Below are positions 477 to 47,612 of a stretch of 64,000 nucleotides of DNA, piece by piece. The first letter of the stretch is position 1; each line of letters starts with the position of its first letter. Under the pieces are notes generated by a model. That model was not told the origin of the DNA and ran no database searches. It was given only the letters and a program-made list of their open reading frames with translations. A program made the position numbers and the translations under genes. The DNA is from a virus (Duplodnaviria > Caudoviricetes), in the IMG/VR virus record IMGVR_UViG_2061766007_001346, positions 96,001 through 160,000 of that record; one strand, 5' to 3'.

Positions 477-510
477 AAACCCCGGCCAAATGGTCGGGGT
501 TTATTGTTTT
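477..510. terminator. Bidirectional intrinsic terminator
   Basis: AAACCCCGGCCA-AA-TGGTCGGGGTTT hairpin with A/T tracts between convergent genes. Confidence 0.8.
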
Positions 511-1757
511 TATGCAGATTGTACCGTTCATCCTGAAGGTACAATGAATTCATTTGTCGGATCTCATACCGCTTCTGGATTTCTTATCAATACTCCGTTC
601 GCAGCAGTACCTGTAAGTCAACCATACATAAATGAACTCGGATGTGGATCTACAGAAATAAACATAGCTTTCACACGATTTATCTTAGAACATCCTTTGA
701 ACATTTGATAATAACAGCTATATGCACCGGTTAAAGCTGTAGCAGGTAGTTCCGGAGACATAACGAGATTCGTACATCCTTCGAACATACTGAGATAACA
801 GCTTGATATAACGGTCGGAGCAAATTTAACGTTTACATCTTCTAAATTAGAACATCCGTAGAACATTTTATTGCAACAGGTATCTCCTGGAATTTCAATA
901 GTAAACTTAGGTCCGTGGACAAGATTTGTACACCCTTGAAACATATTGATATAACAATACTTCGATAATGTCGTAGCTGGCAGTTCAAAAGAAGCATCCA
1001 CTAGATTAGGGCACTGATAAAACATGCTATTATAACAACTTTGTGGTAGTACCGTGGCCGGAAGAACCAGATTACTTACATCTACAACACTCTCGCTATT
1101 ATAAAACATGCTGTTGAAAGCGCCTGCTCCAAGTTCTGAACCATCTGCATTTTCGAAATCTTCTCCAGCAATAAGTGACATGATGTTACCTTTAAGATTA
1201 AATCGAATTCCGGTACGACGCTCATCATGTAAAAACGTAAATCCGTTACCCTGCGCATAACTACTGCCAGTTCCTCTGAACTGTACGACGTCTCCATCTT
1301 CAACGACAAAAGTACTATAGTCGAATTCCGATGTCCACTCACCACCGTTTATTGAATATTCCACAGGATTTCCTTTTGTTATACATCATACACGTCCACC
1401 TACAATAAATTCTGCAGTAAATGGCATTTTTGCATAAGGATTCTCTTCTTCCTCTTCTCCATCTACATCTTTAAGTGTCCAATATTTTTTCCATGAGTCA
1501 CCAAACCATTTGTATATACCGTCTTTTCTGTTCCATAAATAATTTCTTGGTGGTACAGAGTTAAGATCTCCCCACAATATCTGTTTTGGATCTGCGGATT
1601 CACCTAAAGATTCTTCGATACCTTCTACTTTTTCAGAAACTTTCGTTTTCTTTCAGCCATTGGTATAGGTATATATACCGTCTTCTTTCAGCCACAGATA
1701 GTTTTTCGGAGGTATGCTATTTAAGTCAATTCATAATATTTGTTTAGGATTATTCAT
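510..1757 (-). CDS. BspA-like leucine-rich-repeat virion/surface protein (TGA=Trp)
   Basis: ORFs 1386-1577 and 618-1364 join in frame through TGA; LPATxLxxxCYxxMFxGCxNL repeats; C-terminus IVPSG[TGA]TVQSA matches the typical PSGWTV ending. Confidence 0.85.
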
Positions 1758-1775
1758 AATATAATTAAAGTCTTA

Positions 1776-2822
1776 TTACATAGATTTTATCGGGGTGGGG
1801 TCGTCTGCAGCACTTATGGTTCATGGCCAAACAACCGAAGAAGTATGTTTACATGGTCTAACAGTACATGCGCCATTTGTATATCCTAAATTTATACCAA
1901 TCTCAGGTTCACCTTGTTCAACTCTAAGCTGTACATAATATACATATTGTCCATCTTCTGTAGCCGTATGAAGTCTTGTACCATTGCTTCTAAATTCGTC
2001 GCCAGTTGCTCCAGTTGGTTCATAATATCCTAATAATGGTATGAAGATGGAATTTGAATTAACTTTGGATGTAAATAATATACCCTCCACGTTGTCTATT
2101 GTTTCAACGGTTTGTATCGTTCCACTAATCAGTTCTTCGAAATCATTCTTTTGTGGAGCCCCAAACATCTCCGCGTATAGCACATCTGGATTTGGCCATA
2201 ATGCATTTGCTCCAGTTGTAGAATACTCGTTTATAGGGTTGCATATACCAAAATAGAAAAATGGGCCACTGGCTGTAGAAACCTTCGCACCAACATTCAT
2301 ATCTGCCCATAAATTACCTGATGGTAGTCCCAAGTCAACTCAACCAACAGAAGTGTCGTACGGACCTATCATTTGTGAGAGCAGAATTAATTCTTTATTC
2401 TTAAGATATATAATATATGGTGTGTTTGTATCTGCATCGTAAGCTCAGGTCATATATTCAGCGGTGTCTTTATCTCCTAAAGTAACAACATTTTCTTCCC
2501 CCGGTTCGTAACTAGTTTGGTCAACCGGATAAACATCGTCCGAAGTAAATGTATGATTGAAAGAGTTTTCTATAAGTCTCTTGGCTTCCATTAGGAAATC
2601 GTAATCGATACCTACTTCCTTACCTTCCGCGCCTTCATTGTCGTTATTTCCTTCGCCACTATTTTCTTCGTTATTAGTATTACCTGATACAGCTCCAGAT
2701 TCAACTCAGGCCTTTTCTATATAACTATACTCATACATCTTACCATCCGATTTTACCCAGATGTAATTTTTCGGTGGTTCGTTATTATCTTCCCAGATGA
2801 TTGTTTTCTTTTTAAATTCCAT
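1776..2822 (-). CDS. Virion-associated protein with VDLGLPSGxLWAxxNVGA Bacteroidota domain (TGA=Trp)
   Basis: ATG 2822 is in frame with ORF 1821-2333 through TGA codons and ends at TAA 1776; shares an N-terminal IIWxDxNxPPKNYIW module with 510-1757. Confidence 0.75.
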
Positions 2823-2834
2823 ATATAGTTCTTA

Positions 2835-4106
2835 TTAAATCGTTTTGCCGTCTGGGCCAATGTGCAAATGAGCACCCGTAGCTCCAGTTCGTCTTTGCAT
2901 CTCTTTACTTCTTTCATCGAGTATGCCTCATCTATGTTCCCTCAGATAAGCACATACTCTTGGACTACCATATATCTTGGAAAGCAGTTCATCCCATGAC
3001 TGTCCTGCCAATGGCGTGATATCCATTGCATTACCGTGCGCATGGTGAGAAACCTTACCGGTACTTGTTCTCGCACCAGGTCTAGACACAGAAGTGATTC
3101 TGAACGAAATTCCTTCTTCGGCCATAAGATCGATAAGTTCCTTCATATTACCTAAGTCCATGTTTTGCTGTTTAAGTTCAACAGCGCCTCTATCTTTTTG
3201 TTCAGGAACTGTATAATGTCAATTTCTACTAAAATCGTCAACATCCCACGCTGATACGGATTCGACAGGAAAAGAATCCATCTTTTCAAATACCAACGGT
3301 GGAGTTTCATCGGGAAGTTCCGTTGATGGTGATGTACTTGCATCAAACATGTTATAAACTAAACTTCCTCCATTTGCATAAAATCCTTTATATACTAAGA
3401 ATTTCGAAACATGATTTTCTGGATAAGAATAATGTAACATTTCTTCTAAATTTTTAGGGTCTTGCTGTCATTTCACTTCTTCTCCCCAACTTGGATGATA
3501 TACACTCTTAAGCCCATGCCAGTCTCCTTTTTCGTCCGTATATCCACTCGGCAGATGATTTTTTTCAGGATCTTGTCTTCAAGCATCGATCAATTCCGGA
3601 GGAAGTTCCCTTATAGCAGCTTTCGTATCATATTCCGGATCTTCTGGGATTGGAACCATTCCCAACTTGGCATATTCCAAACGCTTCTGAATTTCAGAGT
3701 CCACGTTCGCCGGACGTGCGAACCTACGAGTAAAGATTTCTACAGCTCTTTCTAAGGAATCAGCCTGTTTGAAAGCGTCTGAATTCGCAACTTGGTCCCG
3801 CCAAGTACGACCGCTCCAGCCCTTCTTTTCCAGTTCGTTCAATAATACCGCTGTTTGTCTTTTGAGTTCGGCGTTTCTATCATTGCTTCCAATCCTATAT
3901 CTATCCGAATCTCATTGAATTAGGCCGTGCCATAATCCGTTTGAACTGATAGCGAGTGGATTTCCACTAGATTCACGTTGTATGTTTCCTAAGATCGCGG
4001 CCCTTTGATATACACCATATCCAGCTTTTTGTAATTCCGAATTTATGTATTCGAATACCTTGGTAGCTTTAGGATTTATTTTTGTGTAATCAAGTTCGTC
4101 TCACAT
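2835..4106 (-). CDS. Phage tail-lysozyme-like domain + peptidase M15-like domain fusion (TGA=Trp)
   Basis: One 423-aa frame; AAILGNIQRES...GLIQ[TGA] lysozyme motif; SHHAHGNAMD...HLHI zinc-peptidase motifs; the HLHI motif lies beyond a TGA. Confidence 0.85.
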
Positions 4107-27394: not shown

Positions 27395-28044
27395 GGCCTG
27401 GTGGTGAAATGGTAGACACTGGGGACTTAAATAATTTTTTCATAATAATCACTAGACATTGATTATGGTGATATTCGTCGTGAGACGCATATCACTGCTT
27501 AATGAAAAATTTGAGTGCACTCAGGGATAACCTGAGATGTAGAACCTCCCTAATTCGGTGAAAGCTAAAGTTGTATTATGTATAGCTCAGATTACAGAGC
27601 ATCAGTATATGGGGGTGAGAACCAAGGGAAGTCTCACATTACAATATGCCGATACCGAGCCAATGTCACTGACAATTTATCCCTGACAAGGATATTAACA
27701 ATGTTACTGCGAGTATATTGATTGTTAGACAGTGTGTAGAGACTATTACAGGAGGAACCTAAGTTGGAATTGTATATTTGCGGTTACTTCGGTTCAAGCA
27801 GATATGCATCTTGCAAGATTTCAATATGGTTAAGATAGAGTCCAGACCACAAATAAATACAAGTATGGGTAGTTTATATAAAACGAAGACAGTCAGAAAT
27901 GATGGGAGTCTTAGTTCTGTAGTGAGATTCTACAGCCATGTTCGCCAACACATTTATTGTGAATGTATTTAGTAGTGAAAACTATAGTGGTACAAAAATC
28001 CCCTGACCTGAAAGGTCGTGCGGGTTCGATTCCCGCCCGGGCTA
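27395..28044 (+). tRNA. tRNA-Leu(TAA), split by an intron (exons 27395-27428, 27995-28044)
   Basis: Exons join to GGGGA-CTT|AAAA-TCCCC, with a long variable arm and T-arm GCGGG-TTCGATT-CCCGC. Confidence 0.85.
27429..27994 (+). mobile_element. ORF-less group I intron in tRNA-Leu(UAA)
   Basis: P1 ACUUAAAU/AUUUGAGU; AAUUCGGUGAAA (P); CCGAGC (Q); GUAGAGACUA (R); AAGAUAGAGUCC (S); P3 CCUCC/GGAGG. Confidence 0.85.
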
Positions 28045-32240: not shown

Positions 32241-32382
32241 CAAGATGACAATATTATGGAACATTGTTATGATTGTTTTTGGTCTGAGACCTGTGAATTA
32301 TTTAATTTAATGTACCCATCCGAAGAACAACTTCTAGAAATGGAAGAGTGTGGCGGCTGGATGATTACTGTTGCTGCATAAT

Positions 32383-33066
32383 ATGAAAGTTTACGGAAAT
32401 AAAGGATTGGAAATTCTATTTCCAAAATGTGAGTACGTAGAGAATATTAAAGATGCTAAGGTCGTGTATCTTGTTACAGATACACAATTCGCAACGAGGA
32501 ACGATTCTTATTATTTTCCTGTTACTAACGATTCGTTTGGAACTTATGGTTCAACGTACGATCGTTATGCTGAAATCAAGAAATTGATAGAAGCTCGAGA
32601 TAAGGAACCTCATAGAGAAGTCGCTTATAATGAAGATTTAAGAGGACAACTCAATGAAATCCTGGCTCAGATGTCTCAGGATCAACTGCTTATCGTCTGT
32701 GGCGGTTTTGCTGGAGCGTATGCAAGCTTACACGACCTTACCATTGGTGTTACCGATAGAAACCAGATGGCATCGTACTCTATTAAACTTGGTGGGTATA
32801 TGTATAATGTTGTTGGAAATCAGGCTTCTGTTATCTTAGCAAACGGTAAAGCTGGCACTATTATTGCTAAATCGGAGTCTCATCTAAAGACTTTTTTGAA
32901 AGGATTTGATACGAATACGGTTAATCAATATGGTGAAGCTGAAATGATTTATTTCAAACCAGCTAATGGACCGAAATGTGTTGCGTTTCAGTTTTTTCCT
33001 GATTTCTACCCTAAAGCACCAATCATACCCAAATTAGTCTCACGAATTAAAAAGTATATTCAGTAA
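32383..33066 (+). CDS. Degenerate class I glutamine amidotransferase-like protein
   Basis: N- and C-termini resemble 43602-44240 (PKCVAFQFFPD); catalytic His-Pro-Glu absent. Confidence 0.55.
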   Translation: MKVYGNKGLEILFPKCEYVENIKDAKVVYLVTDTQFATRNDSYYFPVTNDSFGTYGSTYDRYAEIKKLIEARDKEPHREVAYNEDLRGQLNEILAQMSQDQLLIVCGGFAGAYASLHDLTIGVTDRNQMASYSIKLGGYMYNVVGNQASVILANGKAGTIIAKSESHLKTFLKGFDTNTVNQYGEAEMIYFKPANGPKCVAFQFFPDFYPKAPIIPKLVSRIKKYIQ

Positions 33067-34457
33067 TGTGTGGAATTTATGGCATAATTAATAAGGACCC
33101 AGAAACCTTAGACTATGCAACATTTTGCTGCCTTGGATTAGCTAATGATCTAAGAGGTGGAGACAGTTGTGGTATATTTTTTGATGGTAAAACCGAGTAT
33201 GGCATCAAAGAAACTGCTAGATTTGAAGACTTTTTCTGGGAAAGCGAACTGTTAAATAACGCCGGTAAAGTGCAAATTGCGATTGGCCACGATCGTAAAG
33301 CAAGTGTCGGTGGTATTAGTCTGGCAAAAGCCCATCCAATTATCATTAATGATCAGGACGGCAATCCTAAGTTTGTTCTGGTTCATAATGGTACAATTCA
33401 CAATTATCTTGATTTGGCGAAGGAATTTATTCCTGAAATAGATTGCAAAGATTTCTCTGATTCTCAGGTACTTGCGTTAATTCTCTATCATAAGGGATTT
33501 GATGTATTATCTAAGTATATGGGTGGCACTGCGTTCTGTTGCGTTCATTATCAAGAAGGTAAACCGATTGTATTTCTTTATAAAGGTGCGTCGAAACTCT
33601 CTCGTTCTTCTAAAGAGGAAACCGAAGAGCGTCCACTGTATCTTGCTTATTCTCCTGAGACTGGTGAACTAGTATTTTCTTCTATATTGTCTTTCTTGTT
33701 TGTACAGAGAGACAATACTTCTCTTATGAAGAAGAATGTAGTTTACAAGTATGAGGACGGGGTACTTGAGGAATACAAGATTATCGACAGGTCTAACTGT
33801 GTTCAGACCAAGGCAAAAGAAGAAAAACCCAAAAGCGAACCTAAAGTTGTAAGACCAGAAAAGGTTGCAAAAGCCAATGTTATCTATAAAGGATCTGATT
33901 CTGAAGAAGAGGACGAGTACATTTACCTGGCTAAAGATCATGTAAATAATCTTTATAACTTTGGTGGTAAACCACTTCATGGTAAGTATATTATCAGTAC
34001 TTTTGGAAGAATAATCGAAGATTGTTTTGGCAGAAAACTTCCCGCTGGTATGTATCCAATCTATTTCTATCAAGGTATTCCTTTGGTTTCTTCTGAAATA
34101 TTCGGATATCTCGAACATCTCTGTAAGAAATCAATATTCAATACTCCTGAAGAATTTGCAGCATGGTATCAGAATTTGATACGGTATTATAGTCTCGATC
34201 GTGTTTATAATGATCAAGGAGTCTATTATATTGCAACTGCTGTTGATGATAGAAAACCGTTTACGGGATTACTTCAAATGATTGGTCTTGCGCAAGGACT
34301 ATGTATTAAGAACGGCTACTCTACTCATGAGTTTCACAATGGCCAGCCGTATGAGAGTATTTATAAACGACTCTATCCCAATTTAGACTATAAGAAAGTA
34401 TGGAAGCAGTTAAAGCAATACACTCTTTCACAGGAAAGACACTCAGTTCGTGGGTAA
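33066..34457 (+). CDS. Class II (Ntn) glutamine amidotransferase, copy 1
   Basis: MCGI N-terminus, RGGDSCG, GHDRKAS, HNGTI, SDS, ERPL. Confidence 0.9.
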   Translation: MCGIYGIINKDPETLDYATFCCLGLANDLRGGDSCGIFFDGKTEYGIKETARFEDFFWESELLNNAGKVQIAIGHDRKASVGGISLAKAHPIIINDQDGNPKFVLVHNGTIHNYLDLAKEFIPEIDCKDFSDSQVLALILYHKGFDVLSKYMGGTAFCCVHYQEGKPIVFLYKGASKLSRSSKEETEERPLYLAYSPETGELVFSSILSFLFVQRDNTSLMKKNVVYKYEDGVLEEYKIIDRSNCVQTKAKEEKPKSEPKVVRPEKVAKANVIYKGSDSEEEDEYIYLAKDHVNNLYNFGGKPLHGKYIISTFGRIIEDCFGRKLPAGMYPIYFYQGIPLVSSEIFGYLEHLCKKSIFNTPEEFAAWYQNLIRYYSLDRVYNDQGVYYIATAVDDRKPFTGLLQMIGLAQGLCIKNGYSTHEFHNGQPYESIYKRLYPNLDYKKVWKQLKQYTLSQERHSVRG

Positions 34458-35623
34458 CAGTTGCTATTGACTACTATAATGGTGTTTTCATTAACGGTTT
34501 TGTCAAAAGGGGAGAAGAGCGAGTTGTAATTGTTCTTGATAATGGTAAGAGGTATACTACTCGTATCGCACCTCAGGGATTCGAGGGAAAATACTTCTGG
34601 AGTTCTCAAGACAATAAGTACGTTCTTTATCTACGGGGAACTAAATCGGATTTCATTGAGCTGAAATATATGCTTAAATCCGGATTTCCTTATAGGTTTG
34701 AGAAGAAATATGAAGCTGCAGAGAATTTTAGACTTTTTTCGGGAAAACAATCTGTTATCGTAAGTCACGAATTCCCTCTGGCTAAATATCTTAAGTACAC
34801 ATTTGGTATTGAATTTGAAACGTGTGTAGGAATTATTCCCGAGGAACTGTGTTTTCGAGACGGATTGATTCCATTACGTGATGGTTCAATTTCCGGTAAT
34901 GAATACTCTACTGTAGTCATGCGCGGAAATGAAGGGTTGTCACTACTGTATCAGCAGTTACAAACACTTCGCAAGTACACTCATTTTAATAAAGAGTGTT
35001 CACTTCACATGCATTTTGGTGGATACCCATTGGATCCCCAAAAGATTTATCAATTGTATCTTGTCTGTCTTAGACTCGAATCAGATTTGTCTGCAATTCT
35101 TCCGTTATACACTTTCTATACATCTAAGTATAAGCAAAGTGGGAAGGATTACTGTAACAAACTGAATAAGTATCCCAGTTTTACAGTTCTATATCGCAAT
35201 TTAGTCGGTTTAGAATATAATGGCGATTTAACAGTTCCTCATCCTAACGATAAAAATCGCGGACACAAGTGGAATATTGCAACTCGCTATTACTGGTTGA
35301 ATCTTATTAATCTTCTCTGTTATAAGTCTAGTAAAACCGTTGAGTTTAGGTTTCTTAGACCTACGTATAATTTGGAAAGAATTCTATTCTGGATTTATAC
35401 ATTCAACGCCATCATGTTATATGCAGAACAAGATGGAAATCCTTGTGATAGTCTAATCGAGATATATCGGCATATTTATCCAAGCGAGGTTGCCGATATG
35501 CTTGAAGAAGAGTATTATAAGCAATACTGGACTACTGCTCAACAAAAATCGTTGTACAACGATATGATTGGTGCAACAACTGAAATTGAGAACGATTTCT
35601 TCGGTTACGACAGCATCATTTAG
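34400..35623 (+). CDS. Amidoligase (COOH-NH2 ligase fold), copy 1
   Basis: FGIEFET, DGSI..NEY, CSLHMHFG, RY..LN, KTVEFR. Confidence 0.85.
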   Translation: MEAVKAIHSFTGKTLSSWVTVAIDYYNGVFINGFVKRGEERVVIVLDNGKRYTTRIAPQGFEGKYFWSSQDNKYVLYLRGTKSDFIELKYMLKSGFPYRFEKKYEAAENFRLFSGKQSVIVSHEFPLAKYLKYTFGIEFETCVGIIPEELCFRDGLIPLRDGSISGNEYSTVVMRGNEGLSLLYQQLQTLRKYTHFNKECSLHMHFGGYPLDPQKIYQLYLVCLRLESDLSAILPLYTFYTSKYKQSGKDYCNKLNKYPSFTVLYRNLVGLEYNGDLTVPHPNDKNRGHKWNIATRYYWLNLINLLCYKSSKTVEFRFLRPTYNLERILFWIYTFNAIMLYAEQDGNPCDSLIEIYRHIYPSEVADMLEEEYYKQYWTTAQQKSLYNDMIGATTEIENDFFGYDSII

Positions 35624-40106: not shown

Positions 40107-41183
40107 ATGGGTAACAAATTAATTGTTTACACTTCGAATCTCGGATTTACTCCGAAGACTCTTGCGGACGTTGTTGCATTCGCGAAAAAGAATTGCAAGT
40201 TCCGCATCGCTGAATGTGGTCTTAACGACTATCTCGCTTCTGTGAAGGCTGGTGACAACCTCATCACTAAGAAGGGAAATAGCATCTTCGTTATCCGGAC
40301 CTTCGATAAGTCCATTGAGGACCTGTCCGGTGAAGACCGCGCTTACATCGACGATCTCGCTCGTAACTACGATGTTAAGAAAGTTAACATCACGAGCGTC
40401 GCCAATCGTATCAAATTTGAGACGTGGTGCCGTGAGGCTCGGCCCCTTCTCAATTCCGAATCTGCCTCAACCCCTAAAACAACGAGTATGAACTCCATCA
40501 AGAATTTTGGCGAGCGCCTCAAAGCCAACCTGATCCCCACCGAGGCAAAGGATGTCCGTATTGCTATGGACGGTAACATTTGTGTTGCAACCTCTAACGG
40601 TTACGTAACCATCGACGAGAACTTCCACCTCACGTCCTATCCGGACGAGATGGTGATCAACCTCCCGGCTTACACCATTCCGAAGCCTGTCGAGCAGCTG
40701 AAGGTTGGCGATATCATCGCCCGTGAGAAGAGCTACGCGAAGGTGAAGGCCATCAAGGAAGGTCGCATCACTGTCGTTGGTTATACCGGTGCTGGTTCCA
40801 ACGTGTATCCGATCAAGGACTTCTTCCTCGGCCAGACCACTGTCCGTGTCGTGGTTTCCCTCGCTGGTAACCTCGGCGGCCAGATGAATCCGCTGATGCT
40901 TCTTGCCCTCTCCGACAAGAAGGACAACGACAGCCTGCTTCCCCTGATGCTGCTGTCCCAGAACGGCGGTGCCCTTCAGGCCAATCCGATGATGATGATG
41001 GCCCTCGCTGGTGGCGACAAGTTCGACATCAAGGACCTTCTCATGTACTCCGCCCTCAGCGGCCAGAACGCCTTCGGTAACCTCTTCGGAGGTCTCGCCG
41101 CCCCTGTCGCCGCTGCTCCGGCTGCTGCTCCTGCAGCTGCACCGGCTGTTGCTCCCGTCGAAACCCCTGAATCTGCTGAATAA
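40107..41183 (+). CDS. Highly expressed protein with Met-rich MNPLML/MMMM motifs and Ala/Pro tail
   Basis: Strong codon bias; first gene before the GATase/ligase cluster. Confidence 0.8.
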   Translation: MGNKLIVYTSNLGFTPKTLADVVAFAKKNCKFRIAECGLNDYLASVKAGDNLITKKGNSIFVIRTFDKSIEDLSGEDRAYIDDLARNYDVKKVNITSVANRIKFETWCREARPLLNSESASTPKTTSMNSIKNFGERLKANLIPTEAKDVRIAMDGNICVATSNGYVTIDENFHLTSYPDEMVINLPAYTIPKPVEQLKVGDIIAREKSYAKVKAIKEGRITVVGYTGAGSNVYPIKDFFLGQTTVRVVVSLAGNLGGQMNPLMLLALSDKKDNDSLLPLMLLSQNGGALQANPMMMMALAGGDKFDIKDLLMYSALSGQNAFGNLFGGLAAPVAAAPAAAPAAAPAVAPVETPESAE

Positions 41184-41229
41184 TTAACAAAAGAAGTACT
41201 GTGGATACTTCTTTTTAAATTATTAAGAA

Positions 41230-42868
41230 ATGAAGATTTATGTGGTTGGTCCAAGTTGGGATTATGCTAACTGGATCAAAGACGTCGAGTTTGTTCACAA
41301 CATAGAAGACGCACAAATCGTATTATTCACAGGAGGGGCTGATGTAAGCCCCTCCTTATATGGTTGTGCTAAAGACCCAACTGTCTATAGTAGTCCAAGG
41401 AGAGACGAGCAGGAAGTTCTCGCTTTCCGAAAGATGAGACCCGATCAGTTGGCATTTGGTACATGTCGTGGGTTAACGTCGTAGCTCACGTTAAATGGGG
41501 TGAATTGCTGGAAGACTGAGATGTTAATCAGCAGCTAAGCTTGGGCAGTGATGTCCTTGAAAGTTCAGAGACTAGAAACTGAGACTCTTTGAGTTGATAA
41601 TGTTTCCACGAGTACCCCACATTAAAATCATAGATCTTTATGGCTAATGAAATTAAACTAAACTTTATGAGCTACTGCTCGTATTTCGAAGCAAATGGCG
41701 ATATTCATGTTCCTCTTGGATCACATGCGTGTTTTGCAAACGCTATTAATCGAAAAACGATCAGAAAAGAATCTTATATAATCTATCTTTTTAAGGATCT
41801 GAAAGTTGCAAAAAAACATCAGAGTAATTTCTGTCCTTTAACAAAAGAAGAATTAATCTATCATATTAAACAAGCTAGAAGAATATTCAAATTTAACTAT
41901 AATGTTGAAGAAGAGCCGGAAGTACGTAGTGGGGTTGGAGTGTGTCCAGCGTTTAAAGTTACGTTTGACGTTGACGCCAATCATTTCTATCATAGGTATC
42001 TCTTAACTTGGTTAAGATATGCTTATGAGTTTCCGTACAATATGATTCTTCTAGAAGCGTTTCGTCTAAAGAAGTACGCTATTCCAAAGGAAACTCTTCC
42101 TAATCTATTTGTTCTTATAACAAATAGTCTCAAGGACTCCTATTATAGCGATGGCCATAGTATTGGTTGCTCATACGGCAAACACGATATGCTGAAAGAG
42201 GTAACTCTTAAAAAGAACATATCGGAACTCGCTAAACAGAATTCTAACTATGGTTGTTTGAATCAAATATATCCTAGAACAAAAAATAAGGATATTACAA
42301 AACTCACTCGGATAGATCTATCTTATCTGGATGTTGATCAATGGCTTCCTCTGGAAACTTTTGACAAACGTGTTGAGAAATATGTCAAAAATTATAAGAT
42401 TCTAAAAGGTACTAAGTTTTAATGAAGAGATAGTCCGAACTGGGCAGAATTGAATGTTCAGAAGTAGAGGATAAAGAGCCCCTACGATAACAAAATGTAC
42501 AATTCCTATGTGTACTGAATGGTGGTTTGCTTGTTCAAGATTGTGATAATCATGCTGGATGTAATCATGGAATTACTAACGGCAGAGAAACCTTTACAAT
42601 TACTTCTCTTCATCATCAAATGATTTATCCGTTTAATTTGAACAAACGTGATTATGATATTCTATATTGGTCTACCATAAAGCGTTGTTCTTATTATCAC
42701 GGAGACAAAATTAATCCTGAGCGTATTATTCGTGAACCAGAAATAGCTGTTTTTCATAAAGAAGGATTGCCTGTATGCCTTGGTGTACAGGGTCATCCTG
42801 AGATGATGAACTATGGCGAATTGCACGATATGTTAAACGACCTGATTTTGAAATATGCAGTACAGTAG
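41230..42868 (+). CDS. Class I GATase / peptidase C26-like, intron-split (exons 41230-41473, 42498-42868; 204 aa)
   Basis: Splicing restores GTCRG-T|TA-QFLCVLNGG; also FTGGADV, HHQ and GVQGHPE. Confidence 0.9.
41474..42497 (+). mobile_element. Group I intron (IA-like, with P7.1/7.2 insert) carrying an ORF in P8
   Basis: P1 CGUGGGU/GCUCACG with U-G at the splice site; GAAUUGCUGGAA, AAUCAGCAG, UCAGAGACUA, AAGAGAUAGUCC; terminal G 42497; P8 CAUUAAAA/UUUUAAUG encloses the ORF. Confidence 0.92.
41640..42422 (+). CDS. Intron-encoded protein, paralog of 42855-43601; no homing endonuclease motif seen
   Basis: Shared FxxYC, AC[FY], NxCxL, FxYNV, YEFPxN, NLF and Y..NY.ILK motifs. Confidence 0.85.
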   Translation: MANEIKLNFMSYCSYFEANGDIHVPLGSHACFANAINRKTIRKESYIIYLFKDLKVAKKHQSNFCPLTKEELIYHIKQARRIFKFNYNVEEEPEVRSGVGVCPAFKVTFDVDANHFYHRYLLTWLRYAYEFPYNMILLEAFRLKKYAIPKETLPNLFVLITNSLKDSYYSDGHSIGCSYGKHDMLKEVTLKKNISELAKQNSNYGCLNQIYPRTKNKDITKLTRIDLSYLDVDQWLPLETFDKRVEKYVKNYKILKGTKF

Positions 42869-43601
42869 ATTTCTCAATTATTGCACTGTTTTCGGTGGTA
42901 CACTGGATGGTAGAAATATTTGGGTAAATGGTAGAATTATGTGTGATGCTTGTTATCGACAACTTCTTAATAGAATGACCAATCGATCTAAAAAGTATCA
43001 TTCTGATATCTCCATAAAACTTTGTACGGATTCATATCAACCTCTAACTGCACGTCATAACAATCAGTGCTTTTTATCTAGAGTTCAGGTTTCTAGCTAT
43101 TTGCACCAATTAACAAAGATTTATCCGTTTAAGTATAATGTACGAAACGGATCGTATTATAATCATCCTTGTTATATCGTCCATCTTGATATAATGGCAA
43201 CTCGTGCCGTTACGACGATTATTGTGCAAAGCATTAAGAAATTATACGAATTTCCTCAGAATTACTATCTCGCACAAGCATATAAGATGCAACATCTGCC
43301 TAAATTTAGATTCGATAATATTCAGAATCTGTTTATGGCAGTTGCATCTTGTTATGAATCTGAAGGTGATAGAGATCATGTATTTGGAATTTGCCGTAAG
43401 TTCTTAACTATAGATCAAATGCGTAAGCGAATAGAACATATTACTTACGCACGACAACTATATCCTGACTATACTAAGTACTATAATCTGAAAGTACATC
43501 AAGTTCCAGATTATAAAACTGAGTATATTACGGAAAACGCACTTTTCGAAAAGCATCTTCCTCAGTATATTAACAATTATCGCATACTAAAAGCACGATA
43601 A
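42855..43601 (+). CDS. Hypothetical protein of the amidoligase cluster
   Basis: Paralog of the intron ORF. Confidence 0.8.
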   Translation: MQYSRFLNYCTVFGGTLDGRNIWVNGRIMCDACYRQLLNRMTNRSKKYHSDISIKLCTDSYQPLTARHNNQCFLSRVQVSSYLHQLTKIYPFKYNVRNGSYYNHPCYIVHLDIMATRAVTTIIVQSIKKLYEFPQNYYLAQAYKMQHLPKFRFDNIQNLFMAVASCYESEGDRDHVFGICRKFLTIDQMRKRIEHITYARQLYPDYTKYYNLKVHQVPDYKTEYITENALFEKHLPQYINNYRILKAR

Positions 43602-44240
43602 ATGAATGTTTTCGTTGTAAAAGGTGGGAAGAATTATACGAACTTTCTTCCTGATGCCACTCTCGTAAAAAAGATGGACACTGCCGATGTTATCATATTT
43701 ACTGATGGACCTGACGTTAATCCCATGTTATATGGTGCTCGTTGCGAACCTACCACAATGTATGATGGTAGCCGTGACATATCAGACATGGCTGTATTTA
43801 ACAATATTCCAAAGGATAAATTGGTAATTGGATTTGGCAGAGGTGCACAGTTTCTTACTGTGATGAACGGAGGAAAATTAATTCAGGAATGCAGATGGCG
43901 TGATGCTTCGAACATTTCACACGATTTGTTTGTAGAAACTAAGGATGGCATTTTTGTTTATCCGAAGATTCAAAGACATCACCAAGCACTGTATCCGTGG
44001 TATACTAAGCACAGGGTTATTGCATACTCTACTAACATCAAATATTATAGTGAGAGAAACGGTGAGATCGATTATCATCTCAACTATAATAAGGGAAATC
44101 CCGAGATTGTTGTCTATGATAATCCTGAAAAGCCGAAATGTATTGCCGTCCAATTTCTTCCTACAGTTTACGAAGAGGAACTTCTCAATTATCCACTTAG
44201 AGTTTTAGCAGAACTAATAAATGAGAATACTTGTCGATAA
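43602..44240 (+). CDS. Class I GATase-like pseudoenzyme
   Basis: FTDGPDV; GFGRGAQ (Cys replaced by Gly); VQFLPT (His/Glu lost). Confidence 0.8.
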   Translation: MNVFVVKGGKNYTNFLPDATLVKKMDTADVIIFTDGPDVNPMLYGARCEPTTMYDGSRDISDMAVFNNIPKDKLVIGFGRGAQFLTVMNGGKLIQECRWRDASNISHDLFVETKDGIFVYPKIQRHHQALYPWYTKHRVIAYSTNIKYYSERNGEIDYHLNYNKGNPEIVVYDNPEKPKCIAVQFLPTVYEEELLNYPLRVLAELINENTCR

Positions 44241-45018
44241 CATCACTGTTGGTTCCGATCCCGAACTCTTTATCATCAATACGAAAACTGGCAAAGTTGT
44301 ATCTTCTGTAGGACTTATTCCTGGTGAAAAAGGAAATCCTTATGTAGCTGACGACATGCCAGACGGGTTCGGGTTGGAAACCGACAATATTCTCGCCGAG
44401 TTCAATATTCCTCCGGTGAGATCACGACTGGATTTCATTAACAGTATCAATTACATGAAACGGTACATTGATGCATTTGTTAAGAAGATTAATCCAGACT
44501 ATGGAATTAAGTGTTCCGCATATGAAGTCGTTGACGCTGATCAACTGCAAAGTGATCAGGCAAAATTGTTCGGCTGTATGCCGGATTATAACGTTTATAC
44601 GGAATCCGAAAATCCTGCGCCTAAGGGCACACAAACAAATGGTAGATCCAGCGGTTTCCATATCCATCTCGGGTATGCCCGCAACAATGTCGATACGTCT
44701 CTGAAAATGATTCGTTATATGGACATGTTCCTTGGACTGCCGTCTATTCTCTACGATAAAGACACACGCCGTCGTAGCTTATATGGTAAAGCTGGTGCAT
44801 TCCGGCTGACGCCATATGGCTTAGAGTACCGTTGTCTGTCCTCAGCAATGTACGCCAATGACGAATTGATGGGTCTCGTTTGGGATCAATTAATGAACGC
44901 TATTGATGCGTGTAACACGGGTGCTCCACTTGCTGATTCTGGTCTTGTTGTCAAGGCCATCAATAATAGTGATGAGCAACTGGCTAGGACACTCATCAAA
45001 AAATATCTGATAATGTAA
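44221..45018 (+). CDS. phiEco32-like COOH-NH2 ligase type 2
   Basis: GSDPELF, DNILAEFN, FGCMPDYN, GFHIHLG, RRSLYGKAG, YGLEYR. Confidence 0.9.
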   Translation: MRILVDNITVGSDPELFIINTKTGKVVSSVGLIPGEKGNPYVADDMPDGFGLETDNILAEFNIPPVRSRLDFINSINYMKRYIDAFVKKINPDYGIKCSAYEVVDADQLQSDQAKLFGCMPDYNVYTESENPAPKGTQTNGRSSGFHIHLGYARNNVDTSLKMIRYMDMFLGLPSILYDKDTRRRSLYGKAGAFRLTPYGLEYRCLSSAMYANDELMGLVWDQLMNAIDACNTGAPLADSGLVVKAINNSDEQLARTLIKKYLIM

Positions 45019-45021
45019 ATT

Positions 45022-46410
45022 ATGTGTGGAATTTGGGGTATAATTAATACAGAATACGCACCGTTTGACTATAAAACGTTTTGTGTATTAGGTGTTGCAA
45101 ATGACAAACGTGGTGGAGATTCATGCGGAATTTTCATCGATGGAAACGTAGAATATGGTATTACAAAAACGGCTCTGTTCGAAGCATTTTATCCTGGCAG
45201 CAAGCTGCTGCGTCAAACGAAACGGTGTAAGATTGCCATCGGACACGACAGAAAAGCGTCTTCTGGTGGAGTTAGCCTCGAAAAAGCGCAGCCCGTTATA
45301 ATCAAGGAGAATGAGGAAACAAAGTTCGTACTTATTCATAACGGCACAATTTATAATTATGAAGAACTTGCGAAGAAATATATTCCAAACACAAACGTTT
45401 TCGGAATGTCCGATTCGCAAGTTCTTGCACAAATACTGTATCATACCGGATATGACGTATTAAAGGAATATCAGGGTGGTGCAGCATTTGTTGCAGTCGA
45501 TTATAGAAGTGGAAGACCAAGAGTTTTCCTATACCGAGGCGAAAGTAAGAAATACAGTACTAGTGCTGCGGCTGAAGAAGAACGTCCGCTGTTTTTGAAT
45601 TATAAGAATGGAAGGCTGGTTTTCAGTTCCGTTCATTCTTATATTCCAATTCTTGACGGAGGACGTTATTACATTCTCCCCGCCAATGAAATCATTGAGT
45701 ATCGTGATTCCAAGCTCTATATGATAAAGGAAATCGATAGATCTAAGGCAACTCAGGCAAGATGTGCAGTTACCAGTTATGGTTATGGCTATAACTATGG
45801 TGTTCCATCTGAAAATCGTTACTGGGATGACGATGAAGTTGCAACCCCTAATCAGAGTGTAGGAACTGGTTATACTCAGGGAAGTGCATATGTTAGACAT
45901 CTTCCTGGAAAGAATATTTTCGAATACAACGCCAGGCCGATGAGCGGTGGCTATCGTATGACCGGCTATGGTAGGGTCGTTACTGATCCTAAGGAGAAAA
46001 ATTCCGAGTATGTTACCATTAGGGAAGTTTGGTTCTATCATGGTATTCCAATGAAAAGTAAGAATGCGTGGGACTTTGTAACAAGAATGTTTACGGAGAG
46101 TCCTAATTCTTGGGAACCATTCTTCTCCAAAAACGAAAATTTCATTCGGTATTTGAGTGCAGATCCAGTTTATTTCGAAGATAATCACTTGTTACACGCC
46201 ATAGAACCTTTCAAATGGGAGAATTTCACTGGCGATCGACAGGTTTTATTCCAAGCAAGCATTGATATCTATGCTAATGGACAATTCGTGAGAAGAAAAA
46301 CTGGAGTTATTGGAGGCGATGCCAGTAAACAGTTTGATGCATTATTTAATGTCGAAGATAATACTGATTATGACGCATTATGGCAAGTATATCTACAATC
46401 GATTGCGTAA
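45022..46410 (+). CDS. Class II glutamine amidotransferase, copy 2
   Basis: MCGI, RGGDSCG, GHDRKAS, HNGTI. Confidence 0.9.
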   Translation: MCGIWGIINTEYAPFDYKTFCVLGVANDKRGGDSCGIFIDGNVEYGITKTALFEAFYPGSKLLRQTKRCKIAIGHDRKASSGGVSLEKAQPVIIKENEETKFVLIHNGTIYNYEELAKKYIPNTNVFGMSDSQVLAQILYHTGYDVLKEYQGGAAFVAVDYRSGRPRVFLYRGESKKYSTSAAAEEERPLFLNYKNGRLVFSSVHSYIPILDGGRYYILPANEIIEYRDSKLYMIKEIDRSKATQARCAVTSYGYGYNYGVPSENRYWDDDEVATPNQSVGTGYTQGSAYVRHLPGKNIFEYNARPMSGGYRMTGYGRVVTDPKEKNSEYVTIREVWFYHGIPMKSKNAWDFVTRMFTESPNSWEPFFSKNENFIRYLSADPVYFEDNHLLHAIEPFKWENFTGDRQVLFQASIDIYANGQFVRRKTGVIGGDASKQFDALFNVEDNTDYDALWQVYLQSIA

Positions 46411-47612
46411 CTGGTGAACGTATATATGTAAGTGATGCACACAGTGTTGTTGTCAACAAAATTGATGACTGTTTTATTTTTGGTTATACTACTACGCCAG
46501 TAAAGGTGTGCACATTTTTATGGCACGGCTCGCCACAAATGTTCAGCGTACCAGTAAAAAACCGTTGGGAAGTTATCTATGACAATCGCTTTGGATATGA
46601 AGTTGTCAATTTGGACATGTCCAAAAAAGATGCTATATTTGCAAAGTATTGTCGCGGTAGAAATTTTCCATATCATTTTAGAAAAGAATATGAAGCTGTA
46701 AACAATCTGGAAACATTCAAAGATCGACAGAAAGTACGTTATGATTTTGAATTCCCTATTGAGAATTTTATCAAGTACAGTTTCGGTTTGGAATTTGAAA
46801 CTTCCAATGGAATCATTCCAGAGGAAATATGTTTCGCGGATGGGTTGATTCCTCTACGAGATGGCTCCATTAGCGGTAATGAATATTCCACTGTAGTTTT
46901 ACAGGGGCATAAAGGTTTTAACCTGCTTTACCAACAATTGGAAACACTTCGTAAATATACTCGTTTTGATAAAGAATGTTCACTTCATATTCATTTCGGC
47001 GGTTTTCCATTAGAGCCTAAGCGAATTTTATCGCTTTTTAATCTTTGTTGTATAGTACAACGTTCCATTGCTGCACTTGTTCCGAAATATACTTTCAGAA
47101 CATCGCAGTATAAGAGTTCGGGAAAAGACTATTGTAATGCTCTCGGCAGTCCATATACTCGCTTTGAGGATTTCTATGCAGGTTTTACCGGACTTCGGTT
47201 CTTTGGTAGCTTACAGCAACCTCATCCATTGGATATTGATCGGGCTCGCAAATGGAATATTCCCCAGCGTTATTATTGGGTGAATCTACTAAATCTTATC
47301 TGTTATCGAGTCAATAAGACCGTAGAATTTCGCTTACTACGTCCTTCTTATAATCTTGAAAAGATTCTAACTTGGATGTATGTATTTAATGCAATTCTTG
47401 TCTATGCTGAAACACACGATGTTTCGGGTAATGAAAGATTAAACATCTTTCAGATACTTAAAGCTGTATATCCGGCAGATCTTTATGATATACTTGAAAC
47501 ACAACTTTACAAGTTAGAAGTGTGTGTCGCAGAACAAGATAGCATTTGTGATTATATTGGTATGAGAACCGATATCGATGATGAGATTTTCGATCCGAAC
47601 AAGATAATCTAG
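46380..47612 (+). CDS. Amidoligase, copy 2
   Basis: FGLEFET, DGSISGNEY, CSLHIHFG, KTVEFR. Confidence 0.85.
   Translation: MASISTIDCVTGERIYVSDAHSVVVNKIDDCFIFGYTTTPVKVCTFLWHGSPQMFSVPVKNRWEVIYDNRFGYEVVNLDMSKKDAIFAKYCRGRNFPYHFRKEYEAVNNLETFKDRQKVRYDFEFPIENFIKYSFGLEFETSNGIIPEEICFADGLIPLRDGSISGNEYSTVVLQGHKGFNLLYQQLETLRKYTRFDKECSLHIHFGGFPLEPKRILSLFNLCCIVQRSIAALVPKYTFRTSQYKSSGKDYCNALGSPYTRFEDFYAGFTGLRFFGSLQQPHPLDIDRARKWNIPQRYYWVNLLNLICYRVNKTVEFRLLRPSYNLEKILTWMYVFNAILVYAETHDVSGNERLNIFQILKAVYPADLYDILETQLYKLEVCVAEQDSICDYIGMRTDIDDEIFDPNKII

Follow-up and report, generated by a model that had tools for sequence, protein, structure and literature searches.

The stretch analysed here, referred to as the window, comprises 64,000 nucleotides (bases 96001-160000) of the IMG/VR virus record IMGVR_UViG_2061766007_001346, a 177-kb virus genome rated complete, and contains a class I glutamine amidotransferase (GATase) gene that is interrupted by a group I intron with a further protein gene in its P8 loop. 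All features of this locus lie on the + strand. Exon 1 of the host gene (41230..41473, labelled C26A; PF07722, E 1.9e-5) covers the first 81 residues of a Peptidase_C26-type GATase (C26 in the following), ending just past the catalytic Cys79 with ...FGTCRG plus a T. It is followed by an intron of 1024 nt (41474..42497), which is IA2-like with P7.1 and P7.2, and by exon 2 (42498..42868), which was recognised by tblastn and by alignment to unsplit relatives and shows a weak PF00117 match at its C-terminus. The intron carries a 260-aa open reading frame (ORF), X1 (41640..42422), and a free-standing paralogue of 248 aa, X2 (42855..43601), lies downstream. A first-pass annotation, made from the sequence alone, had given this arrangement the span 41474-43601, which does hold the intron, exon 2 and X2, but the intron itself occupies only 41474-42497.

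The intron was delimited by its splice sites and by the restored frame of the host gene. Exon 1 ends with ...TGT CGT GGG T and exon 2 starts at 42498 with TA CAA TTC ...; the unspliced exon 1 reading frame stops at a TAG (41482-41484), and the joined exons read FGTCRG-L-QFLCVLNGG, which is colinear with 20 unsplit C26 genes (G-x-C-R-G-x-Q-x-x-C-x-x-N-G-G). Leu82, whose codon the intron divides (T|TA), lies three residues beyond Cys79. In P1, GUGGGU|U pairs with GCUCAC (41484-41489), leaving a U.G pair at the 5' splice site, and the last intron base is a G; the U.G splice-site pair and the terminal G likewise occur in the introns of the phage loci L005, L029, L024 and L031 (L numbers denote relatives of the window throughout).

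The 5' part of the ribozyme (41474..41628) contains the P1 3' strand within the internal guide sequence (41484-41489), P3 (41496-41501), P4-P6, the P7 5' strand (41570-41574), P7.1/P7.2, P3' (41614-41619) and the P8 5' strand (41620-41628). Its 3' part (42416..42497) consists of the P8 3' strand (42416-42424), the P7 3' strand (42431-42435), P9 (42440-42461), P9.1 (42464-42485) and the omega-G at 42497. Helices P1, P3, P4, P5, P6a, P7.1, P7.2, P8, P9 and P9.1 are all readable from the window sequence, and the presence of P7.1 and P7.2 indicates an IA2-type architecture. RF00028 returned two half-matches on the window intron, 36.4 bits (E 2.4e-7) in the 5' part and 22.1 bits in the 3' part, which fall short of the gathering score (50) since the ORF places 0.8 kb between them, while an ORF-less orthologue in L027, located at the identical codon, scores 67.6 bits. 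This L027 intron (2238-2499) has as its only in-frame 3' splice position one without a G (...AAAAAUA|CU CAG), and it may be a dead copy.

Covariation was assessed over the window intron and the orthologous introns of five other contigs. Double compensatory changes were found in 14/33 pairs of the 5' half and 10/14 pairs of the 3' half, and in 34/64 pairs when the six ORF-deleted cores, which are 62-85% identical pairwise, were folded together; P7 (GACUA/UAGUC) is invariant and therefore uninformative in this respect. These comparisons show a genuine intron whose structure is maintained by selection; the ribozyme is well supported, and the intron is predicted to be functional, of the IA2 type, and to splice. 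The boundaries, the RF00028 matches, the covariation and the restored frame all agree with the earlier claim that a group I intron splits a class I GATase three codons after its catalytic Cys.

The P8 loop is filled by X1, and the core helices of the ribozyme are conserved around it. The ORF begins 11 nt after the P8 5' strand, and its TAA stop is placed inside the P8 3' strand, so the first-pass annotation was right in putting a 260-aa ORF into this loop. The same holds for its view of X1 as a full-length paralogue of the downstream gene, since X1 aligns with X2 over the full length (BLASTP E 5e-12, 22% identity). These are the only two X copies in the 177-kb genome, which contains no free-standing X1, and their GC contents are alike (33.3% for X1 and 33.6% for X2).

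An exhaustive HMMER search with X2 yielded an X family that, when clustered at 50%, numbers at least 134 representatives, nearly all of 230-270 aa, and its profile recognises both window copies (about 1e-67 to 1e-70). A separate search aimed at longer, fused versions found none, which is weak evidence, and no match came from scans of viral contigs that used X1, X2 or an X1 sub-alignment as query. In the family alignment C31, E130 and Y248 are invariant and F32, N63, C65, L122, R126, Y129, P132 and H173 near-invariant; all of these residues are kept by X1 and by the nested orthologues P0103 and P0063.

According to the first-pass annotation, the intronic ORF has no LAGLIDADG, GIY-YIG or HNH motif, and indeed neither X1 nor X2 has a Pfam or PHROG match, no meaningful Pfam match was obtained across 79 family members, and the X family profile found no match among PDB sequences. 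The HNH ORFs present in L024 and L031 are picked up by the Pfam and PHROG searches that miss X. An AlphaFold2 model of X (pLDDT, the predicted local distance difference test score, 92; pTM, the predicted template modelling score, 0.90) shows a five-stranded sheet followed by helices. It had no match at E<=0.001 in a Foldseek search of the PDB, its best Z was 4.3 in an exhaustive VIA wide search that listed no nuclease, and nothing in the ESM Atlas, searched by shape and by features, exceeded a template modelling score (TM) of 0.36. PafA (Z 4.2, 173 residues), Dop (3.9) and McsB (3.8) would suggest the glutamine-synthetase-like fold typical of carboxylate-amine ligases, an attractive match in view of the operon, but it was not used, as these scores lie well inside the VIA noise band. 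In BFVD, the X model matches four uncharacterised proteins (TM about 0.7, E 1e-7 to 1e-10), which are two paralogues each in the crAss-like phages cr108_1 and ctelJ1. The fold comparison that had been proposed as a check thus gave no nuclease match by profile or Foldseek, but a fold that matches no solved structure speaks neither for nor against a nuclease.

Genomic contexts of X were recovered for about 30 members, and in all of them the same module order was observed: p358 - [X - C26 GATase]n - COOH-NH2 ligase type 2 - class II GATase - Amidoligase_2, where p358 is a conserved protein that opens the module. In some 25 related phage loci, X is the gene immediately preceding a C26 GATase gene, and most of the loci L009-L031 with an X-C26 module are intron-free. 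The unit is present once (n = 1) in L012, L021, L023, L025 and L026 and twice (n = 2) in L014 and L017. In L010 (4555-6711), three tandem X genes and one C26 directly follow an ATP-grasp (RimK-like) gene, and in cr108_1 (NC_055878.1, 83670-85571) two longer X-fold paralogues are situated between an ATP-grasp gene and a C26 GATase; the ATP-grasp gene of these two modules is missing from the window module. Because X is present in all contexts examined, intron-free ones included, it is a fixed module component and not a sporadic insert.

As to its function, hhalign comparisons of the X profile with the module ligase, amidoligase, GATase II, p358 and C26 profiles all gave probabilities <1%, and X is therefore not a detectable paralogue of the other module proteins. 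Our best guess, a tentative one that we rate at somewhat less than even odds, is that X serves as an accessory, acceptor or scaffold partner of the C26 amidotransferase, because it is constantly found upstream of class I GATases, is duplicated with them, and in five genomes has its X2 copy paired with a Cys-less C26 paralogue (C26B).

Relatives of the window show both the free-standing and the nested state of X1. In L009, L019, L020 and L030 an X1-type gene, an unsplit C26 and an X2-type gene follow one another, and in L009 and L030 the Cys-less C26B comes next. L031 has the array p358 - C26(0) - X1 - C26A[HNH intron] - X2 - C26B - ligase, in which C26(0) designates the copy between p358 and X1 in L031-like genomes. 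In all five of these genomes a free X1 stands beside an unsplit or differently split C26, with X2 after it, and the proposed comparison with intron-less relatives accordingly found two free-standing copies. The window, L005/L006, L008 and L029 share the order p358 - C26[exon 1 - intron with X1 - exon 2] - X2 - C26B - ligase, and none of them has a free X1. Free-standing genes of the X1 clade were found in L007, L009, L013, L014, L016-L020, L030 and L031. In a maximum-likelihood tree, the X1 clade (support 98/97) unites four nested and ten free-standing copies, apart from an X2 clade with 100/100 support; within it, the nested copies of the window, L008 and L005 form a subclade (98/97).

At the same C26 codon, and in the same ribozyme, three states of the cargo were encountered: none (L027), an antisense HNH/EndoVII gene (L024 and L031) and X1 (window, L005, L008 and L029). 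The antisense P8-loop ORFs of L024 and L031 match phrog_3322 (E about 1e-28) and phrog_3118, 'HNH endonuclease' (about 1e-11 to 1e-12); tblastn with these two HNH proteins found no endonuclease remnant in the window intron. Since the homologous intron holds an HNH gene in L024/L031 and nothing in L027, X1 fills the slot of a homing endonuclease.

Divergence was expressed as amino-acid identity of the window to L008, L005 and L029, in this order. It amounts to 57%, 44% and 42% for X1, to 55%, 52% and 30% for X2, to 67%, 49% and 32% for C26B, and to 80%, 75% and 68% for exon 2. As X1 diverges in step with its flanking genes, which misfits recent homing, the comparison points to a nested state that is old and vertically inherited. 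The same congruence, together with the retained invariant residues and a GC content like that of X2, argues that X1 is functional and kept by purifying selection.

Compared with L031, one C26 gene is missing from the window lineage. Half-gene trees group both window exons with C26(0) (support: N-half 91/79, C-half 89/92), which agrees with the place of the window host gene directly after p358. A twin-intron fusion, in which exon 1 would come from a C26 upstream of X1 and exon 2 from a downstream C26, with X1 trapped between, is unsupported, as both halves group with C26(0); an earlier tree without L031 had suggested such a chimera, and the result reversed once L031 was added.

Taken together, we consider it probable (roughly 0.75) that the window holds an IA2 intron in the C26 gene of a large crAss-like gut phage with a relocated operon gene, X1, as its P8 cargo. 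The first-pass idea that a member of the amidoligase operon is nested inside the ribozyme is supported by the fixed place of X in the modules, the free X1 of relatives and the HNH gene that L024/L031 carry at the same position. In the ancestor, X1 would have been free-standing beside a C26 gene; in the window lineage it would then have moved a few hundred bases into the intron, a direction suggested by the comparison, one neighbouring C26 copy would have been lost, and no free X1 copy would have remained. Several observations weigh against this interpretation. The fold of X has no solved relative (best Z 4.3) and is compatible with nuclease or maturase activity. The host paralogue is only moderately resolved, a grouping with C26A reaching p-AU (approximately unbiased test) 0.16, and the nested copy of L029 is unresolved relative to the other three, so that monophyly of the nested copies is merely not rejected (p-AU 0.23). 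The free-to-nested polarity relies on outgroup parsimony rather than on a rooted tree. Moreover, X and C26 are not strictly 1:1 (3:1 in L010, 2:1 in cr108_1 and 2:3 in L031), and these unequal numbers weaken the idea of an obligate pair.

Among the alternatives, the one that survives best, although we regard it as improbable, is that X represents an unrecognised endonuclease family, with X1 intron-encoded and X2 free-standing, whose adjacency to C26 would be a target-site association comparable to that of mobE between nrdA and nrdB in T-even phages. The P8 loop is a position used by endonuclease genes, the absence of a solved relative of the fold makes any function compatible, and the invariant or near-invariant Cys/Cys/Glu/His residues could bind metal. 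Moreover, the move of a free-standing gene beside an intron-containing gene into that neighbour's intron has reportedly been proposed, by Bonocora and Shub in 2009 and by Zeng et al. in 2009, as the origin of mobile introns. However, X matches no nuclease family in Pfam, PHROGs or PDB sequence profiles, and selfish endonuclease genes are typically sporadic, whereas X occurs in every module examined, at a fixed position and as 1-3 diverged tandem paralogues of about 25% identity, with no presence/absence polymorphism and a divergence congruent with that of its neighbours. In addition, the L024/L031 intron has an HNH gene of its own while X stands free next door.

Still less probable is the recruitment of X1 as a maturase, kept in the intron to aid ribozyme folding beside or instead of its operon function. 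Compared with the HNH-carrying and ORF-less introns, P7.2 is shortened in the window and L005 and lost in L029, which could mean a greater dependence on protein, and bifunctional intron proteins are known (PMC3073962). The X family is mostly found in intron-free genomes, however, and maturase activity therefore cannot be its ancestral function; the residues that are invariant in the family are also all kept by the nested copies, and the comparisons recognised no RNA-binding fold, the KH-like matches (Z 3.8-3.9) lying within noise. Least of all do we expect the nested X1 to be an accidental duplicate that landed in the intron and is now a decaying, unexpressed hitch-hiker on its way to loss. 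Although a free-standing paralogue persists in X2, four genomes have an unbroken ORF of 260 aa despite differences of 43-58% among their X1 copies, with the invariants kept, no free-standing X1 is left in the genome, and X1 and X2 are separate ancient clades that are both retained in intron-less relatives, so X2 is no replacement for X1.

If X1 is a relocated operon gene, its position has consequences for expression. It would share the transcript of the host gene and be translated on either the pre-mRNA or the excised intron. From the 5' splice site up to X1, no promoter-like signal exceeded chance, which makes the operon transcript or the excised intron the probable source of X1. Given that the ORF starts 11 nt past the P8 5' strand and stops within the P8 3' strand, a few bases short of the P7 3' strand, ribosomes finishing X1 would have to open P8/P7. 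In phage T4, translation of intron ORFs into the core interferes with splicing. It is plausible that X1 translation and splicing likewise compete on one transcript of the window phage, which would create a trade-off between X1 synthesis and maturation of the C26 mRNA.

The intron lacks a recognisable endonuclease and is probably immobile. Its precise loss would delete X1, and for this reason we propose that it is retained by selection on its cargo. The first-pass notion that X1 expression could be coupled to splicing and that the intron could be costly to lose is a reasonable hypothesis. A stronger version, in which the intron is domesticated as a gene shelter and expression switch, with the X1:C26 ratio reading out the race between ribosome and ribozyme, appears rather unlikely to us; under it, the phage could not lose the intron because the only X1 copy sits in the P8 loop, and, with the final X1 codons placed in the P8 3' strand beside P7, X1 translation and ribozyme folding would be mutually exclusive on any one transcript. 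If true, this would be, as far as we know, the first viral self-splicing intron that is fixed by, and regulates, a host-type cargo.

Group I introns of phages are treated as selfish elements with homing endonuclease ORFs. The IA2 introns of the T4 td, nrdB and nrdD (sunY) genes interrupt genes of metabolic enzymes near catalytic residues and have an ORF in a peripheral stem loop, and these ORFs encode the GIY-YIG or HNH homing endonucleases I-TevI, I-TevII and I-TevIII. The window intron resembles them in its IA-type P7.1/P7.2 architecture, its location in an enzyme gene and its looped-out ORF, but differs in that the ORF is a paralogue of a neighbouring operon gene and has free-standing orthologues. 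We know of no reported case of a gene-housing group I intron in a phage or other virus, and a literature search turned up none.

Gene-housing group I introns have been described in organelles: the mitochondrial ND5-717 intron of the hexacoral Discosoma holds 15 genes in P8 (PMC3073962), and a group I intron in the fungal mitochondrial rnl gene houses rps3 (PMC3073962). As in the window, a peripheral loop (P8 in Discosoma) accommodates ordinary genes unrelated to mobility or splicing, and the window cargo has what characterises gene housing, namely free-standing orthologues in intron-less relatives and an intact ribozyme core. Unlike these organellar introns, the window intron belongs to a virus of bacteria and its cargo is a neighbouring operon gene. 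The premise of the first-pass annotation that phage intron ORFs are normally homing endonucleases stands, but needs the qualifier that organellar group I introns carry cargo unrelated to mobility (PMC3073962). Such cargo is already known from organelles, and the phage case is set apart by the survival of three states at one site.

A survey of crAss-like phages reported group I introns with HNH ORFs in cr50_1 and cr1_1 (Yutin et al. 2021, PMC7886860). These introns and those of L024/L031 are alike to the window intron in the ribozyme, and L024/L031 additionally share the C26 site and carry the cargo in the same P8 loop; their cargo, however, is an antisense HNH endonuclease, while that of the window is an operon gene on the sense strand. 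Since Yutin et al. located introns by searching for endonuclease domains (PMC7886860), an intron of the X1 type would escape that survey. The ribozyme 5' core of the window shows 75-77% DNA identity to the 'intron-encoded HNH endonuclease' regions of cr50_1 and cr1_1, and on account of this match the source appears to be a large phage from the Zeta or Epsilon groups of crAss-like phages, both reported to be intron-rich (PMC7886860). The window further contains 18 tRNA genes, one transfer-messenger RNA (tmRNA) gene and a second RF00028 candidate (27462-27863; 36.1 bits, E 1e-8).

Because the ORF-less, endonuclease and operon-gene states survive at one site, the replacement of the cargo can be reconstructed, and the locus offers a natural series for studying how mobile introns become fixed, whether cargo makes introns irremovable, and how splicing and the translation of nested genes interact. 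Annotators and intron finders will mis-call genes of this kind as three separate ORFs. The locus also draws attention to X itself, which with at least 134 clusters, a confident predicted fold and constant adjacency to GATases belongs to the core of the widespread phiEco32-type modules.

Modules of the phiEco32 type were reportedly described by Iyer et al. in 2009 as combining a COOH-NH2 ligase type 2, a GATase II, an Amidoligase_2 and a GATase I. The window cluster is co-directional and has all four enzyme families (PF14395, PF13522/PF13537, PF12224 and PF07722), and sequence comparison recognises X only where such modules come from crAss-like or other metagenomic phages. The cluster opens with p358 (40107..41183), which lacks a Pfam or PHROG match and for which tblastn found homologues of 44-89% identity at the module head of L005, L012, L014, L017, L023, L025, L027, L029 and L031. 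X2 is followed by the Cys-less class I GATase paralogue C26B (43602..44240; motif GFGRGAQ; PF07722, E 3.5e-11), a phiEco32-like COOH-NH2 ligase type 2 (44221..45018; PF14395, E 1.1e-11), a class II glutamine amidotransferase (45022..46410; PF13522, E 8.6e-17) and an Amidoligase_2-like protein (46380..47612), whose PF12224 match (E 2.2e-4) reaches 21.6 bits against a cut-off of 22 and which is 42-63% identical to its counterparts in relatives. Homologues of the COOH-NH2 ligase were found in 315 phage records.

C26B has Gly or Val at the position of the catalytic Cys (G-F/I-G/V-R-G as opposed to G-x-C-R-G), and this holds for all five genomes: the window (43602-44240), L005 (7968-8615), L008 (1585-2226), L029 (8956-9594) and L031 (10108-10731). 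It is always preceded by a divergent X2, and the two look like a conserved pair of pseudoenzyme and X2.

A reduced second module is present 6 kb upstream in the window (32371-35623), which consists of a 231-aa ORF without a Pfam match and ORFs of 463 aa and 407 aa, and is devoid of an X gene. Its counterpart in L005 is a GATase II plus amidoligase pair (494-3036).

Between p358 and C26, a hairpin AAGAAGTACTGTGGATACTTCTTTTT is located at 41186-41216, only 14 nt ahead of the ATG, and has a conserved counterpart in L005. It was not called by the terminator scan, and transcription may run on into the operon from p358, a GC-rich gene (53%).

Finally, the COOH-NH2 ligase gene is unbroken in the window but interrupted in relatives, where two different codons are affected, one after about residue 145 and the other after about residue 118 (L005 9034-10050, L029 10013-11034, L017 6795-7921, L014 6702-7670 and L016 2340-2603). 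The inserts measure 0.26-1.1 kb and some of them show faint LAGLIDADG matches, which marks the module as an intron hot spot.

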